Positions 1 to 8,233 of a stretch of 8,233 nt of DNA are shown here, in pieces. The stretch is taken from NCBI GenBank assembly GCA_051294375.1, contig JBJCIZ010000197.1, forward strand, positions 1-8,233, in the 5' to 3' direction. This stretch comes from Paraspadella gotoi (Eukaryota > Animalia > Chaetognatha). Each line of letters starts with the position of its first letter. Positions within the stretch are counted from its first letter, which is position 1. Below the pieces are notes generated by a model. That model worked only from the letters and a program-made list of their open reading frames with translations, was not told the origin of the DNA and ran no database searches. The translations under genes and the position numbers were made by a program.

Positions 1-191
1 TTCATAAAAATATTAAAATAGAAAAATAGAAAATAGTGAACAAGTAATTTGCAAATTTTCATAATAATTACTTTTAATATACAAACAGAATTAATACTTT
101 GAGAAGGATTTAAGCAAACTCATTCAATTATAATTTAATAATATTTACAAAGAATTTTGAATTGTTACAACGATTTTATNNNNNNNNNNTT

Positions 192-235
192 GCAGACATG
201 TTTCGACTCAGAGATTTTCGAGTCTTCATTAGTGC
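192..235 (-). ncRNA. Type I hammerhead ribozyme, G5A variant (probably inactive)
   Basis: Minus strand reads GCA-CUAAUGA-A-GACUC(GAAAAUCUCU)GAGUC-GAAA-CAUGU-C/UGC. This gives stem I GCA/UGC, a 5-bp stem II, palindromic stem III ACAUGU and a GUC cleavage triplet. The core is CUAAUGA instead of CUGAUGA (position 230). Confidence 0.8.
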
Positions 236-409
236 TTTTTGACAGTTGTGAATTAATTGTGAGTTAAAGAAAGAGAGAGAGAGAAAGAGAGAGACAGAAA
301 AGGTTAAAGTTTCCAACAAAGATTGAGACAGATTAGTGGTCAGTTTAGAGGACAGATTTAGTTGAGGCTAGATTGAATAAGTGGTGAAAAGAAATGAAAT
401 TTGGTGAAA

Positions 410-412
<3 letters not shown>

Positions 413-450
<38 letters not shown>
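413..450. repeat. (GA)19 microsatellite
   Basis: Perfect GA dinucleotide run in the spacer between the inverted arms; a related GA-rich tract lies at ~269-300. Confidence 0.97.
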
Positions 451-454
<4 letters not shown>

Positions 455-709
455 AACAATTACATTTGAGCAATGTACAACTAAAATAAAATTAAACAAA
501 CTTGATTTGTATGTATCAATAACAAAATTGCAATAAATTAATTTTGAAATTTGAAATATAAGAGTTTAATTTTCACCACTTATTCAATCTCGCCTCAACT
601 AAATCTGTCCNNNNNNNNNNCCACTAATCTGTCTCAATTTTTTGTTCAAAACTTTAACCTTCTCTTTCTTTAACTCACAAATTGTCCCATTATTCACAAC
701 TGTCAAAAA

Positions 710-738
710 GCGCTGATGAAGACTCGAAACATGTCTGC
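710..738 (+). ncRNA. Minimal type I hammerhead ribozyme (intact core, collapsed stem II)
   Basis: Reads GCG-CUGAUGA(713-719)-AGACUC-GAAA(726-729)-CAUGU-C735/UGC. Stem I is GCG/UGC and stem III is palindromic ACAUGU. Predicted cut is after C735. Confidence 0.8.
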
Positions 739-1286
739 AACTTAATAATAATAAAATCGTTGTAACAATTCAAATTTTTTTGTAAATCTCTATACAACAA
801 CGAAAAGAAAGGATATACTATGAATTTAATAATAAAAATATATTTTATTGAGGCGACAACATCAATGACTTCGACAAGGAGAAACTAAGGTAAGGGAACC
901 AACCTTAACCGACTTACTATTGATTGTTTAGCGTTTTCCGTTATTTTCTTACCATTGTTTTGCCTTTTTACCTTACCTCATTTTTGAATGATTTCGATCA
1001 TTACATGTCTTATCCAAAAACCGTAAACAACTATATTTTTCTCTCTATAATCAAATTCGACATGGAGGGATTCATTCCCAAACGAAGTGTTGGACTGACA
1101 CTTCTGTCCCGACCTCGCCCGGCGTTGGCGCCTCCCAGGCTCCTTTGGCGTCGCCCCCGGTCAAATCCAGTGGGATCAATCATTGAATCGCCACATGGGC
1201 GGAAAACTGGTCAGTCACATCGATGTCCTCTTGCAGGCGTCACTTGGTCAACAATATAGCTGACATTGAGAGAGGACACTGACAAC

Positions 1287-1319
1287 TGACTTACATGGAC
1301 AATGACTTACATTGGACAA
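1287..1319. repeat. Short tandem duplication (16/17-nt unit x2)
   Basis: TGACTTACATGGACAA followed by TGACTTACATTGGACAA. Confidence 0.85.
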
Positions 1320-2437
1320 TGTTTTACCGCAGAATTCTCTTCTTCCTCCTCAGTCCTTCCTTTGGATTCTTTCAAGGACTCAACGCATAAATATCAAGGC
1401 TTATTAAATATATTAAACCAACTTAACAAATTAATGTTATGCCATATGGTTGCACGTTTGAAAAACTAGTAGGAATAAAAACTAAATAAACAGTTCTCTA
1501 GTTAGGTTTACTTTTTACAATACTGTGCATCAAAAGTTAAAACTGAAAAAAGAAATAAGCTTGACCCATGACCCTGACCAAAATTAAATAATACCCCACA
1601 AGCACTTCGTGAAGTTCTCCAATCATAATCTTACTTGCTTCTGGTAATACCAATTTTGATATGTCACACTTATGCTAAAAATGCATAATTCTTTAAAAAT
1701 CGATCACATGTTCCAAAATTCAAAACCGCTTATACATGATTTTTCTTTTGTAACATTTCGTGACTGTAAAATTTATAGAGTTTAGATAGTTTAGATAGTC
1801 GGATTAGAAGGTCTCGGTTTGGCATTTTCTATGTGTAATATAACATTGTAATGAGTCTTCTTTATTGATTTACTAATTATTAAGAGGAATCCAAGTTTGA
1901 CAACTCATCAATTCGTTTCCCCCCCAATTTATTTCTGAATTCTGATGGTTAAAAACATTTTGAATTTATGAAAAAATAAATATGACTTTTTTTAAAGGAT
2001 AAAAAATATAATATTTTAATTATTAATACATTTTTTAAAGAGTGGGAGATAAAAACAATTTATGATCAAAGTAAACGCAGAAAAAAAATTAACAATGATA
2101 TTATCTAACAATATTGAATAAACTGACAATTATTGACAGGGCAGGTAAAATAAGGTCAGCGATATTTGTTGATTGCCACCAAGCCCTTTTGCCTTCTTGT
2201 TTGGATTAGCCACCAGGGTTTGAAAGTTTGGGCTCAATGTCATCTGGGAGCAGAGATTTCCGAGGAGACCAAAGGAGTTGACGGATCCGGCCTTGCCCAT
2301 TGTCCTGGATAAGGAGTTGAGGAACAGGTAACTCTCGGGAAAATACTTTGGGATTATAAATATTTACTTCACTGAACATTCGCTATTTTCAAATATAAAC
2401 TAATAAGTATAATAATATAATAATAAGTATAATACTA

Positions 2438-2947
2438 GGGTAAAATTTTACTTTCGTCGACCGGGGTTTTGAAAAACGATTTAAAAATATATATTAAAAA
2501 AAAAAATTACTACCTTAACCCTAACTTATCCCTAACCCTAATTTACCATTAATTTAAACTTACTACTAATTTAAAAATACTACTAATTTTAATTTACCCT
2601 TTAGCTTAAATTACCCTTATATTTAACCCTACCTTACTATTCAACTTATATACTTAATATACCAAAACCTTAACTTATTTTTAATTTTAACATAATCATT
2701 ACTCAAATATTAGTATAATAATAAAAAATATAAAAAATATTAAAATATTTAAATGCTTAGTTTATTTTTAAAGAAATTATCCTTTTTCCCTTTAGTTCCT
2801 CTTTTCCCTTAATTTATTAAAAATAACCTTGTTCTTCATTATCTCAGACCTCTGGAGCGTATTAATCTCCAGGAGTGCCAAAACAAAATTTATTAACTGA
2901 TTCGTCGAGAGCCGGGCCCCGAGTCGCCGATACCCGTGTCGCCAAGA
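2438..2947. repeat. Unclassified interspersed repeat with degenerate TAACCC/TTACCC core and GC-rich ends
   Basis: Only one G on the + strand in 2479-2712. CCTAAC/TAACCC motifs at 2513-2547. TTCGTCGA at both ends (2453-2460, 2901-2908). Short inverted matches GGGTA/TACCC (2438/2931) and CGACCGGGG vs CCCCGAGTCG. Palindrome GTAAAATTTTAC at 2440-2451. Boundaries are approximate. Confidence 0.5.
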
Positions 2948-3000
2948 AAAGTTGTTGGTTCTTGCAAAGTTTATTCCAAATTTAGTGGAAAAAACGAATA
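2948..3000 (+). repeat. Left copy of ~55-bp dispersed inverted repeat (partner 4490-4545)
   Basis: Its reverse complement aligns to 4490-4545 with 4 substitutions and one 3-nt indel. Confidence 0.9.
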
Positions 3001-3253
3001 TCACAATGAAAAATTTCTCAGGTAGGGATTTATGGACCATTTTGGGTTAAAAACTAACTTGTTTTTAGGAATAAAACGATTTTAGTCTAAAATTATTTAT
3101 CTTGATTGAAAATAAAGTACAAAGCATTAACGCTGATGAAAAAAATGTCCGTTTTTTCTTTATGAAAATAAATCTTATCGCTTTCAAACTTTGTCTAGAC
3201 ATTTTGTCTAATTAAATAGTATGGTGGACTAAAATCCACCAACCGTTCATGCA

Positions 3254-3325
3254 GCGGCCATTGATGCCGGAGGCAAGTCATTCGCCTCCCTACCCAAAGG
3301 TCCGGGGTTCTATCCCGGTGGTCGC
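3254..3325 (+). ncRNA. tRNA-derived pseudo-tRNA / SINE-type Pol III head (Gly-CCC-like layout)
   Basis: 72 nt. Acceptor stem GCGGCCA/TGGTCGC; D-stem GAT/GTC with GG in the loop; anticodon loop CT-CCC-TA; variable region AGGTC; T-arm CCGGG/CCCGG with B-box-like GGTTCTATCCC. The anticodon stem is broken (TTCGC/CCCAA), so it is not a functional tRNA. Confidence 0.8.
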
Positions 3326-3327
3326 CT

Positions 3328-3403
3328 GGCAGTTAAGAGGGACGGGGCGCTTAACCCGCCTGTAACATGGTGTTACAGCCTGATCTGAAGCTCAGGGACT
3401 GCT
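3328..3403 (+). ncRNA. Twister ribozyme, type P5 permutation
   Basis: P5 GGCAGUU(3328-3334)/GACUGCU(3397-3403); P2 3' strand GAGG; conserved GA 3341-3342; pseudoknot T1 CGG(3343-3345)/CUG(3385-3387); U^AA 3352-3354; P2 5' strand CCC; pseudoknot T2 GC(3358-3359)/GC(3390-3391); P3 CUGUAACA/UGUUACAG; P4 CCUGA/UCAGG with loop UCUGAAGC (U-NNN-AAGC consensus). P1 is reduced to GGCGCU and P2 has a one-nucleotide bulge. Confidence 0.8.
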
Positions 3404-4489
3404 TACATTGAACGGTTCTGTCATTAACACTTATCAATAATTACTGTCTCTTCAATAGTCTATATAGTTTGTATCGCATTGTCGCCAAAAATTGCGGGCA
3501 TCGATGCTTCCTAGACACCTAATTCTCGCGCTAACTTAGCTATATCTACGTAACCGAGAGTTTTAGTGCCAAGGCCCAATGACGATGACAACGTCTCACA
3601 GCAGACCTGAGGTCAAGACAATTGAGAAATGCCCAGATTAAAATGTCATGTAGCGAGGTCAATAACAGACAGTATAAAGTAACTGTACTACTGACAGTAT
3701 TAGAAGTCTGGGCAAAATAAATATATATTCTGGCGTCCTGAGTTGACCACGGTCATCAAGATAACCNNNNNNNNNNAGAATCCTTTTACCGAAATACGGT
3801 GAAGCTTTAGTCGTCGTCAGTGGCTGACCTTTTCTTCTCGTTCTCTCATTCGAATTTAAAGCCAAGAATTAAAAACACGTTTTCTCTCTCTTTTTAATTG
3901 CCATCCAAAGTATTGTTATCAACTACATTTTTAACCTTGTTGTATCTACTTAAAGTATATCGTCCGTTTATAATTGTTTTAAATATTTCTAATACGTTAT
4001 TGAAACGTAGAACCTCTTTTGCCTGTTTGATATTTCAAGTAGTTAATATAAAATTAATTAAATTAATTCTACAACATAATTCTTTGTGACGAGGGTTTCC
4101 AAAATAATAACCATTGTAAGAAAATTCAGCGTTAAAGTATAAAAACTTTAGCAATTATTTTTAACCTCAACCAAATCTTATAAAAATATGAAAATAAATA
4201 AATTTTTGAAATCTTAAAGACATAATATCATAATAGGTTTAAAGGCAACTTTGAGGAATGGGAATCTACAATGAACCCACACCGATATTGCTAACTTACC
4301 AAAATAATTACAGAATATAGATTTTTTAATAAATCATGCTGATGTGGCAGCAGCAACACGCAACCTCATCCAAACATCTCTCTCTCCCAATCACCGGTCA
4401 CCACCACTGTCTACCGGCTGTCCTCAGCCGGTCTCTGTACAGTTTATTGTTATGGCTTTAGACTTTGCATTATTTGGAATTGATGTCTG

Positions 4490-4545
4490 TATTCGTTTTC
4501 TCCACTTAATTTGGAATGAGAAACTTTGCAAGAATCAATAACTTT
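4490..4545 (-). repeat. Right copy of ~55-bp dispersed inverted repeat (partner 2948-3000)
   Basis: TATTCGTTTTCTCCACTTAATTTGGAATGAGAAACTTTGCAAGAATCAATAACTTT matches the reverse complement of 2948-3000. Confidence 0.9.
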
Positions 4546-4684
4546 CAAAAATGTTTGATATTTCTGGGAGGTCTCGTTTGGCAATATTGTAAAAATTACA
4601 TTTTTCTCAACTAAAACATCGTAACCGGGATAAAAAACAAACTGAGAAATTAATTTTCTCTCTAACCATATCTAAACAAATATA

Positions 4685-5040
4685 TTATTTTTTGTTTCCT
4701 TCGCCATACTTGCGGTGGTACCAGCACATGTCCATGATGGCCGCAGAGGCCGAGCAGCAGTCCGCCCACTCGTCCAAAGCTAGTCCATCACGGGCTCCCT
4801 TGACGCCGAGAAACCGTCGAGCCGCACCAGCGCCGTCGGGAATCCGCGACCTTCGTACTTTGCAAGGTCCTCGGCGCCACCCGGCGTTTGCGTGACGACG
4901 ACCGCGATCTTCGGAGAGAGCCTTCAGCGTGAGGGCCCCCAGCAGATCGTCAACTTCTAAACCCTCAGCGAGGGCCGAAATGCTCGTGAGAAAATCCCGG
5001 GGATGTTTGCCCCCGGGATCGTAGAAGAGAGTACAAATAG
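4685..5040 (-). pseudogene. gag: Ty3/gypsy-type gag remnant, C-terminal part
   Basis: Open frame 5023->4685 reads YDPGGKHPRDFLTSISALAEGLEVDDLLGALTLKALSED...MCWYHRKYGEGNKK*. This matches the GDxKPSxLLxxMxxLA...L..L.LxxLP segment and the CWYHxx(F/Y)G motif of invertebrate gypsy Gag. It is truncated before the expected downstream cysteines and pol. Confidence 0.8.
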
Positions 5041-5042
5041 AA

Positions 5043-5847
5043 CAGTGTGTCCCAATGNNNNNNNNNNTTAACTTTTACATTTTCTGCAGAACTGTGTTCT
5101 TAAATCTTATCTCTGAGATAACAAGGTCAAAGATAAGTTCTTACCATTTATAATACTATATTTCAAATNNNNNNNNNNNNNNTTTTTCTTTGCAAAACAT
5201 TCAATTTAAATGAGTCCTAGTTCTTCACTTTTGATTTTTAAAATATATTTTATTTTTAAAAAAATTTGATTAAAAAAATTACAGAAAAATATTTTCAATT
5301 GATTTAAATTATTTAAATTTTAATTATGTATAAAATATGTGCATTAATAAAAAGAAAAATGCATATATTAAAAAAANNNNNNNNNNAATAAAAATATGCT
5401 AATTATTTTGATATTTAAATTTTATTATTTCAAGTTGTGAGCGACTGAATCATTAAGCCAGAACAAAATGGTTGCTATNNNNNNNNNNAATTATTATTAA
5501 ATCAATTAAAAAAGTAAAATTTTAAAAAGAATGAACATTGCATTATAAAATGTGTCTGTCCTGCATCTAAGAAAACGATTTAAAAGATTATTTAATAAAT
5601 ATTTAAAAAAATATTAATTAAATGTTAAAAAACATATAATTTAATCCAATTTTTTCACAAATCACTAAAAAAAAGTTTGACCAAATTTTTATGTAATAAC
5701 TAAAGGAGTTTACTTTGTTCAATTTTTAAAATTTAGTATCCTAAGAAATGGTCCACACTTGTGCGCTTATTTATGACAATGAATTTAAGTTTTTCAATAT
5801 GGTATATTAGTAAACTTTTATTAACGGACAGTACCATTGGGACACTA
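5043..5847. mobile_element. MITE / non-autonomous Tc1-mariner-like DNA transposon inserted in gag
   Basis: Left end is CAGTGTGTCCCAATG-N10-TTAA (5043-5071). Right end reverse-complemented is TA|TAGTGTCCCAATG-GTACTGTCCG-TTAA (5849->5821). The interior is very AT-rich and non-coding, and the element sits exactly between the two gag halves. The TSD is ambiguous: a degraded TA, or ATAG at 5037-5040/5847-5850. Confidence 0.75.
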
Positions 5848-6093
5848 TAGTTTATTCGCCCGCTCTGCCCTCGTCGGCTTGTACGCCTTGAGTAGGCGCG
5901 TCTTAAGGGCCCCGTACGGATCCGGCTTGTCGAGAAAAGTTGAAAGTCGTGACGACATGGTGATACTTCATCAGGGAGACCATGACGTTTTTGATCGCCA
6001 GTTGGAACTCTGCTCGGATGAACTTTGGTCGGCGTCGCTCGTCCAAAAATCCGGGAGCTTGACGGAGACGGCCGTTGTTGAAGTGGAGGCCAT
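5848..6093 (-). pseudogene. gag: Ty3/gypsy-type gag remnant, N-terminal part (DUF7041-like), two frameshifts
   Basis: From ATG 6093 it reads MASTSTTAVSVKLPDFWTSDADQ / FIRAEFQLAIKNVMVSLMKYHHVVTT / FLDKPDPYGALKTRLLKAYKPTRAERANKL. This matches the VKLPxFW...WFxxxExQF...TKYxxVV...PYxxLKxxL pattern of this Gag family. Confidence 0.85.
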
Positions 6094-7059
6094 GACCGAC
6101 TTGGTGAAAACGAAGGACGGTCAAGGCAGGTCGGCGGAGAGAGTGAGAATAAGACAATCTTTTAGGAATGACCCCGTTTCACGGTCTTTAAACAGACCTA
6201 GGATCAGAACTCAGAAGGTAGAAATCTTCGAGGAAGGTAAAACCAGCCTCTTCAATGCATCAAAATGGATGGTCAATGCAGTAAGGGGGACAAACTTAAA
6301 GGAACGTGAATTATTTTTTTTTCTGGAAAGTAAATAAACAATTTTAATGTTCGCGAGAATGAAAAGTATGACAATTGTAAATAATAAACGTTGTTAAGAC
6401 ACGATGCAAGTTAACGTGNNNNNNNNNNCCCATGCAAATTTTTATTATATTTCGTAATCTGTGAACTAGAAGCTTTACTTTAATAATACCATTTATTTTT
6501 TTTTAATTTTAAAAAAAAATTCAATATTTTTTATTTAAGTGAAAATTTATACTTATTTTCGAGTTTAATTTTTAGCAAGTGCTAAGTCTGGAAAGACATT
6601 ATTAAAAGTATTTTTGTTTTACTTTTAGCCCGCATAAGCGAGCAGTTTGATCGAATGCGACCTCTCTAAACACTGTCAGCATTCCCAGACAAAAGATAAA
6701 GTGAAACTTGAATCAGACTGAGAAGTGAAGTAAAGACTAAAGTGAAATAAAATGAAATAAAATAAAATAATAAAGTAAATATATATTGAAAAAAAAATAT
6801 TCTGATTGATATTTAGAATATTTAAAAAAAAAAAGAGAGAGAAAGAGAGAAATCAAATCGTTTTCGGACGAATCAGCAATGGCAGCAGCAGAGGCACCCA
6901 GAAAAAAAAAAAAATTAAAAGGCAGCAGCAGCAGGAAAAAAGAGAAAAACAATAAGCCCCTGCAGAGCAAGCTGCGCTCGTTTTTTTCCCTATGATTATG
7001 AATCAGTGACTATTAAAAGAAAAAAGAGAGAAAGAAAGAAATATGAAAATAAAAGAGAA

Positions 7060-7296
7060 AANNNNNNNNNNTTTTGATAAAATGTAAACAAAACATATTC
7101 AATAACTGTCCAGACTCAATTTTTAGCACATTGATGATGAGAAGCTGTATATAAATTTTCAGCTTCATACACCCAAATTTAATCATAAAAAAGGCGATCT
7201 ATAATTTGGAACGCTGACAACGACGACGACGACACCACTTATGCGCAAAAGTCTTACAATATCGTCGCAAACACTTAGCGATTACGACGATAAAAA
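7060..7296. mobile_element. Possible Helentron-associated (HINE/DINE-1-like) short element nested in the TTAA element
   Basis: (CGA)4 microsatellite at 7221-7233, then terminal hairpin TATCGTCG(7260-7267)/CGACGATA(7285-7292) followed by an A run. Internal hairpin GAAGCTG/CAGCTTC at 7141-7166. The left boundary falls in an N run and is uncertain. Confidence 0.45.
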
Positions 7297-7585
7297 TTAT
7301 TTTATATATTAATTTTTTTATCTTATATTTAATCATATNNNNNNNNNNAAATATTATTTTGTATTGATTTCTTTTTAATTAATAAAAAAAACCATGATGT
7401 TTTATATAATCTTTTTAAGGATAACAATTTCAATAGCCATAACCAATAAAATGTAAATGCTAATACTACGTTAAAATAATCTATCATGGGCATAGATTAT
7501 AGAATTAAAATATATTTTTTCAAAAATAATTTTTTCTGAAGGTACTCGCTTAATTAAGATTATTACTATATAAAAAAAATTTGAT

Positions 7586-7797
7586 AGATTCTGATAGAGC
7601 ATAAAAAGTTAAACAAGAAATATAATTACAGCTTTAAAAATTTTCATATTTTCTCAGTAAAAATTAAAAAAACTGATAAAATCGTCGAAAGATAATGATT
7701 TTTTATAGTTTTTTTTTTTTTTTACTAACTTATCATAAAAATATTTAAAAAAGAATTATACTTTGTAAAGTTAACTTTTTATGAGCTATCTGAATCT
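7586..7797. repeat. Internal inverted repeat pair (27 bp)
   Basis: AGATTCTGATAGAGCATAAAAAGTTAA (7586-7612) vs reverse complement of 7771-7797 AGATTCAGATAGCTCATAAAAAGTTAA: 24/27 identical. Confidence 0.85.
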
Positions 7798-8233
7798 GGT
7801 CTTAAAATTTAAAATTTTTCCAAAAAATTTAAGCCTTTCCTATCTATAAATAAATATTAAAAAATTAATTACTAAAATATAAAACCATATAAGAATTTTT
7901 TTGTCCATTGAAAATATACTTGAAAATTTTTGTACTCTTTAAATTTTTGACTCACCTCATTGAGTGCGGCTACCCTTAATTTCAATCACCGATTTTTTTA
8001 TGGCTGCATACACTCCGCCACGCTAACTTTCATTGTGTCTTAAGAAAGAAAATTCAAATTCGAATAGGGTATCGAGCTTTATTTTTCTTTTTTTTTCTTT
8101 TTTTAAATTTATTTATTATTGGAAAGGTTAAGTTAAACTTGTTTATCAAGTAAGTTGGTAGGATCGCCGTCCAGGTTTATCAGGAGATTAGCGTTTCCCC
8201 TTTGTAACACTATGGAGAGCCGCTGAAAAAAAA

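Follow-up and report, generated by a model that had tools for sequence, protein, structure and literature searches.

A predicted P5-order twister ribozyme with a tRNA-like unit in its closing helix in the chaetognath Paraspadella gotoi

We analyzed an 8,233-nucleotide stretch of the genome of Paraspadella gotoi (the window; GenBank assembly GCA_051294375.1, contig JBJCIZ010000197.1, positions 1–8,233 of the forward strand) and found at 3328–3403 what largely holds, from its sequence, as a P5-order twister ribozyme core, predicted to cleave itself at U3352/A3353. The twister core, its missing P1 stem, a self-complementary linker, a tRNA-like unit and an enclosing stem can be read directly. By analogy with known elements, the locus would represent a non-autonomous Penelope-type retrozyme driven by a tRNA-derived Pol III promoter, present here as a solo copy that has partly decayed, a reading that commands about half of our confidence.

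Table 1. Features of the tRNA–twister locus (window positions)
Feature	Position	Strand	Details
Upstream hairpin	3222–3241	+	pair probabilities ~1.0
Outer stem, 5' arm	3241–3249	+	9 Watson-Crick pairs with 3409–3417
Degenerate tRNA-Gly(CCC)-like unit	3254–3326	+	ARAGORN 89.0, possible pseudogene
P5	3328–3334 with 3397–3403	+	7 bp, G·U at both ends; fold prediction
P2	3338–3340 (3' strand) with 3355–3357 (5' strand)	+	2 of 3 pairs formed
Conserved GA	3341–3342	+	G3341 is the predicted general base
Pseudoknot T1	3385–3387 (5' strand) with 3343–3345 (3' strand)	+	3 pairs, one G·U
Linker replacing the P1 hairpin	3346–3351	+	6 nt, self-complementary
U/AA with predicted cut U3352/A3353	3352–3354	+	core match
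Pseudoknot T2 (GC)	3358–3359 with 3390–3391	+	2 pairs
P3 hairpin	3360–3378	+	8 bp
P4 and loop L4 (T1 5' strand, AAGC)	3379–3396	+	5 bp, A-U closing pair
3' arm	3397–3417	+	pairs with the P5 5' strand, then 3250–3251, then the outer 5' arm
Downstream segment to first T4 run	3418–3564	+	unstructured

The twister assignment and the predicted cut site, first proposed from the letters alone, are upheld by core nucleotides, pairings and simulation. The GA, T1, the U/AA site, T2, P3, P4 with its AAGC loop and P5 all lie where the original prediction had placed them, and T1 pairs as it had claimed, despite CUG/CGG strands, through three pairs including one G·U. Its broader statement, that essentially every twister element is present, is true of the core, the pseudoknots and P3 to P5, but not of P1, which is absent, nor entirely of P2, with two of three pairs. 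Compared with 69 phage examples, the core nucleotides of L1 and L4 (GA, U/AA, GC, U and AAGC) are all there in P5 order. The GA is invariant in all 69, a set gathered with a pattern that itself fixed GA, and the UAA-CCC-GC of the locus is found identically in phage twisters L282, L254, L274 and L237.

That this likeness arose by chance is scarcely credible. Our twister descriptor was composed after the locus had been seen, which favors chance; it matched the window at a single place, and it also matched 1 of 150 shuffles of the window and 1 of 5,000 shuffles of the region. Markov simulations produced 26 core matches in 730 Mb and 3 in 710 Mb. Against a chance origin, none of the simulated DNA, 1,440 Mb in total, contained a complete match that had a proper P2–P4 junction and a P5 of at least 5 bp, and published 3' ends of Naiad elements, described below, show the same design.

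Covariance models gave results on the side of chance. Rfam returned neither a twister nor a tRNA match for the whole window at E ≤ 1 or for 3200–3480 at E ≤ 10, and the locus does not reach the gathering score of RF02684 (37.6). The Rfam twister search that had been put forward as a check thus went against the proposal, with no match at the locus although 11 of 16 phage loci, run as positive controls, matched Twister-P5 at 46–63 bits. A custom model, built from 69 of 75 long-linker phage P5 twisters (one probable false match and five close relatives were excluded), ranked the locus first in the window, at 14.3 bits and E 0.006, but in the wrong register; on this scale true twisters score 25–57 bits, and one background locus, at 16.2 bits, exceeds ours. 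Both models likely miss the locus because they are built around a long P1 hairpin and take no account of pseudoknots.

Each departure from the consensus has a natural or experimental precedent. Phage P5 twisters gathered by pattern gave 77 distinct well-formed parses, among which the P2 strand is 3 nt long in 41, a ratio that mirrors the search patterns and not nature. Because a P2 strand of 3 nt is common in natural (phage) twisters, we rejected a deletion as the explanation of the one at the locus. P2 with two of three pairs and a distal mismatch also occurs in phage twisters L254, L274 and L237, and a CCG/CGG T1 occurs among phage twisters as well. P4 is closed by a G-C pair in 69 of 69 phage twisters versus A-U at the locus. 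In the rice twister scan (PMC5113685; matrix columns counted by us), relative activity was 0.98 for C26U, 0.86 for C27G/G47C, 0.85 for G23A/C32U and ~0.84 for G42A; the double mutant G42A/C26U, counterpart of the P2 mismatch plus T1 wobble at our locus, falls to 0.13. Pseudoknot-free folding prefers, by ~8 kcal/mol and with a probability of ~1, a rival hairpin that pairs 3343–3346 with 3355–3358. Given this dominant rival and the value for the double mutant, the locus copy may be slow as a ribozyme even if its family is active.

The 6-nt linker can form at most one hairpin pair, hence the lack of a P1 stem, whereas linkers are at least 12 nt long in 75 of the 77 phage parses. P1 proved dispensable in vitro (PMC5408937) though the consensus lists it as essential, so a monomer may work. 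As a self-duplex the linker would form 6 bp at -8.3 kcal/mol; 6% of random 6-mers are self-complementary and 1% are equally stable. We predict from this modeling that 3346–3351 is a pairing site between two ribozyme copies. The hammerheads of Penelope elements and retrozymes have a palindromic helix III and cut as dimers (PMC6765202, PMC4209133). Cofolding of two copies, by a method outside whose reach pseudoknots lie, gave a dimer through P3/P5 swaps and not through the linker.

Among phage sequences, L250 (248–290, identical in L286) is a P5-order candidate with a 6-nt linker and without a P1 hairpin, scoring 25.2 bits with the custom model. In phage contigs L225 (210–309) and L205 (230–329), a pair of type-P1 twisters is arranged head to tail at a distance of 48 nt; as tandem P1-type twisters, both were rejected as a P1-less precedent. 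Four other phage contigs (L275, L246, L245 and L260) carry two to five type-P5 twisters within 2 kb; in most the P2 strand is 3 nt long, and downstream of many come a ribosome-binding-like word and a start codon. When prokaryote genomes were scanned for P5 twisters with a short linker (55 of 64 parts, one T1 type), 0 of 120 had both P2 and P4 complete.

The type-P5 twister RF02684 (PMC5408937) shares with the locus the strand order, the core, T1, T2, P2, P3, P4 and P5; the locus differs in lacking a P1 hairpin, in the A-U pair closing P4, and in being Rfam-negative and eukaryotic. In File S5 of the Naiad paper (PMC8557442), 5 of the 24 entries viewed, of 54 in the file, have by eye a P5-order, twister-like 3' end with palindromes replacing P1, and one further passage of the file shows, again by eye, the same fold. 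The five belong to four bivalves and one cubozoan, going by names taken from headers and metadata order; P3 abuts P4 in four of them, and in two the P2 strand is 3 nt long and carries a distal mismatch. Within this set of entries, the Naiad ends resemble the locus in P5 order, a palindrome in place of P1 and a long closing P5. Their linkers measure 20–25 nt and mostly hold two palindromes, where the locus has a single one of 6 nt; the T1/T2 letters differ, and the locus has no open reading frame and carries a tRNA-like insert. Since the Naiad linkers are longer and the letters different, we speak of a shared design and not of demonstrated kinship. A search with short words through the Naiad consensuses, which come from other species, found no direct sequence relative, and the word "twister" has no occurrence in the main text of the Naiad paper. 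Six 3' ends in the viewed part of the same file (oyster, pearl oyster, three hemichordate and one hydrozoan) share, by eye, another structured motif, which has a palindrome at its center and may be an HDV-like ribozyme. The T-variant twisters of Perere-3 RTE elements (PMC8501958) are likewise eukaryotic retroelement twisters with a weak or missing P1; they are P1-type and sit at the element's 5' end, where flanking DNA completes P1, whereas ours is P5-type and internal.

The tRNA-like unit upstream of the ribozyme resembles a promoter in relic form and is not a functional tRNA. ARAGORN made no tRNA call on the window at default settings; with a lowered threshold the unit received the window's best score. 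Of the tRNA-shaped unit described in the original prediction, the position, the canonical length (72–73 nt) and the intact 7-bp acceptor stem stand, but the cloverleaf is degenerate and below default thresholds. Three of five anticodon-stem pairs form, the T arm is shifted, and in the predicted fold an alternative hairpin (3269–3289) takes the place of the D and anticodon arms; below both ARAGORN and Rfam thresholds, the cloverleaf is not that of a functional tRNA gene. Measured against the box consensuses, an A-box-like word at 3262 has two mismatches and a B-box-like word at 3306 has one, 44 nt apart. Scores of at least 87 arise 0.28 times per block-shuffled window, so that only the placement beside the twister is significant: in the slot of 100 nt before the twister (3229–3328), 1 of 5,000 shuffles scored as well.

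It is improbable, in our estimate, that the tRNA likeness is incidental to a true twister from the terminal region of a Penelope-like element or LINE, transcribed other than by Pol III. The silence of default ARAGORN and of Rfam, the frequency of equal scores in shuffled windows and the replaced D and anticodon arms all fit such an origin, but the length, the acceptor stem, the box spacing and the rarity of such a score in the slot do not, and no nearby open frame has a Pfam match (one downstream frame was scanned).

Phage theta ribozymes trim the 3' trailers of tRNAs, and our twister, starting 2 nt past the acceptor stem, is placed as if for a similar task. Such trailer trimming is nonetheless very improbable here: the predicted cut, 27 nt past the acceptor stem, would leave a trailer, the cloverleaf is defective, and 0 of 37 phage twister loci have a tRNA within 250 nt. 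The first two of these points also weaken the self-trimming tRNA that had been offered as one interpretation.

An outer stem prolongs P5 beyond the tRNA-like unit, which is therefore a side branch of the closing helix and not a free head. This 9-bp stem was reached in 19 of 20,000 shuffles, its pair probabilities are 0.6–1.0, and the extended closing helix amounts to ~20 bp with its 5' side broken by the tRNA-like unit. When the outer stem is included, both the acceptor stem and P5 are predicted with a probability of ~0.96, even for a transcript to 3564; with it removed, the values are 0.27 and 0.64, respectively. The segment 3241–3420 forms a compact closed fold (z -2.25), as stable as or less stable than 7 of 500 shuffles. 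The original picture of a head fused to the twister is incomplete, in that the tRNA-like part is enclosed by a unit whose start lies 13 nt or more upstream of it.

The outer stem opens with a C/A step, 20 nt ahead of tRNA position 8, and this step, at 3241, we take by a rule of Pol III initiation to be a plausible start. The hairpin just upstream, which may or may not belong to the element, partly resembles, by eye, one that ~10 Naiad consensuses carry close to their 5' end; the most conserved 3' half of that motif is unmatched. Downstream, the first T4 run lies at 3561–3564, as the original prediction had stated, 212 nt after the predicted cut, and is a possible Pol III terminator; the fold of 3353–3765 is not more stable than those of shuffled sequences (z -0.48).

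The main rival to a promoter-bearing retrozyme is a one-off composite, in which a tRNA pseudogene or the head of a SINE inserted into the P5 arm of a twister-bearing Penelope-type terminal-repeat remnant and the two never spread together. We consider it unlikely, though several features would suit it: without the tRNA-like unit, the pieces of the 5' arm are nearly complementary to the 3' arm as a single helix; a 4-nt word flanks the insert (3251–3254, 3329–3332), like a short duplication, which is weak evidence; nested transposon debris fills the window; and a second copy was not seen there. The insert, however, ends cleanly at the acceptor stem, has neither SINE body nor tail and shares the orientation of the ribozyme, both folds stay compatible at pair probabilities of ~0.96, and the outer stem begins where, on the rule assumed above, a Pol III start is expected.

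The compact closed fold, the plausible start and the T4 terminator would also fit a single- or low-copy host gene for a Pol III non-coding RNA that nicks itself, its pieces being held together by P5 and the outer stem. We think this decidedly improbable, as several G·U pairs and mismatches look like decay and the setting is one of transposon debris, within a pair of 56-nt inverted repeats.

The window is AT-rich (~32% GC), without long open frames and packed with nested transposon debris; a Pfam search of four of its open stretches gave 0 matches. Inverted Penelope-type terminal repeats (143–390 versus 570–787; 72%) form a pair spanning 143–787, a minimal hammerhead core of Penelope type lies at 713–729 on the plus strand, and a minus-strand hammerhead copy near 190–240 has an altered core. 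No hammerhead core was found inside the tRNA–twister unit. The inverted repeats that flank the unit (2948–3000 and 4490–4545; 56 nt, 87.5%) possibly mark a DNA transposon that received it by insertion. Farther along, on the minus strand, 4685–5044 and 5851–6120 resemble by eye pieces of one Ty3/Gypsy-type gag gene, which we take them to be; neither has a Pfam match, and they are interrupted by stops and by an AT-rich insert between 32-nt inverted repeats (5026–5057, 5835–5866). A degenerate tandem array with a 17-nt period and many TAACCC-like words occupies 2515–2614.

A second copy of 3100–3800 was not found in the window, which has an N stretch at 3767–3776, nor was a tandem array of the locus found within it. 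We saw no convincing target-site duplication, AT-rich repeats of 7–9 nt being the only candidates, and no LINE-like 3' tail at the locus; the head is not at a 5' terminus, given the structure upstream of it. Pattern searches of prokaryote-dominated collections, with 23 of 64 parts of the metagenome set scanned, gave 4 viral and 120 metagenome matches; none of either kind was well formed or a relative, and the best BLASTN E was 0.23.

Comparison with known systems makes a tRNA-SINE or retrozyme family, as raised originally, plausible by analogy. Sm-alpha couples a tRNA-derived Pol III promoter to a hammerhead (PMC6765202, PMC2770079, each in part), and the analogy drawn with it in the original prediction is apt. 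As described in those portions, Sm-alpha and Sj-alpha of Schistosoma have, like the locus, a tRNA-derived promoter followed by a ribozyme whose cut parts promoter from body. They differ in using a hammerhead, where the locus has a twister, predicted to cleave, with the tRNA-like unit inside its closing helix. Animal retrozymes are non-autonomous Penelope derivatives, according to the available part of bioRxiv 10.64898/2026.07.22.740005. In that part and in sections of PMC7229834 and PMC7761336, metazoan non-LTR retrozymes are, like the locus, small non-coding units with a ribozyme, in which a weak helix may need a partner copy, and likely depend on Penelope; theirs are hammerheads, with no tRNA promoter mentioned in those sections, whereas the locus has a twister and no tandem array. 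Full-text searches of open-licence PMC papers and bioRxiv brought up no description of a tRNA-promoter element with a twister, or of a dimer-acting twister.

How the preferred Penelope-type retrozyme would operate can be outlined from Sm-alpha and animal retrozymes, which supply every step (PMC6765202, PMC2770079, PMC7229834, PMC7761336 and bioRxiv 10.64898/2026.07.22.740005, each in part). A Penelope-type element, probably the source of the ribozyme, would have captured a tRNA-derived promoter, from which Pol III would initiate near 3241 and transcribe on through the ribozyme. In head-to-tail copies, two twisters might pair through the 6-nt linker, by comparison with double hammerheads, or each might act alone, and cleavage would release from multimers single-unit RNAs that end in a 5'-OH and a cyclic phosphate. 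After circularization by a host ligase, these would be copied back into the genome by a Penelope-like element's reverse transcriptase. Where a copy stands alone, cleavage would separate promoter and body, as for Sm-alpha, so that this copy would be a dead end.

The Penelope-type minimal hammerhead in the window counts for the Penelope-type reading. Against a retrozyme count the T4 run, which could halt Pol III before the next unit; the frequency with which a palindromic linker arises by chance and the mismatches in the A- and B-like boxes; the rival hairpin, the low activity of the rice double mutant and the longer, differently lettered Naiad linkers and pseudoknots; and the single copy, the lack of array, tail and duplication, and the poor model scores. 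The fuller proposal, a Pol III-driven retrozyme family with a domain-swapped "double twister" joined through the 6-nt palindrome and a tRNA-derived promoter in the closing helix, is a tentative one to which we give a minor share of our confidence. If true, the Sm-alpha design would have arisen twice independently, the second time around an unrelated ribozyme, and dimer-gated cleavage by a twister would have its smallest natural example here.

Should the locus prove to be a one-off composite, it would be no more than a curiosity. Because Rfam misses such twisters, their numbers in animal genomes are likely undercounted. If there is a family, eukaryotic P5 twisters would gain a concrete job, and a 180-nt construct would be available for testing a pair-gated twister that cuts multimers and spares monomers. 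The class of ribozyme would then be interchangeable in tRNA-promoter retrozymes; what counts would be not the hammerhead but the logic of a Pol III promoter, a self-cut, a circle and a borrowed Penelope enzyme.
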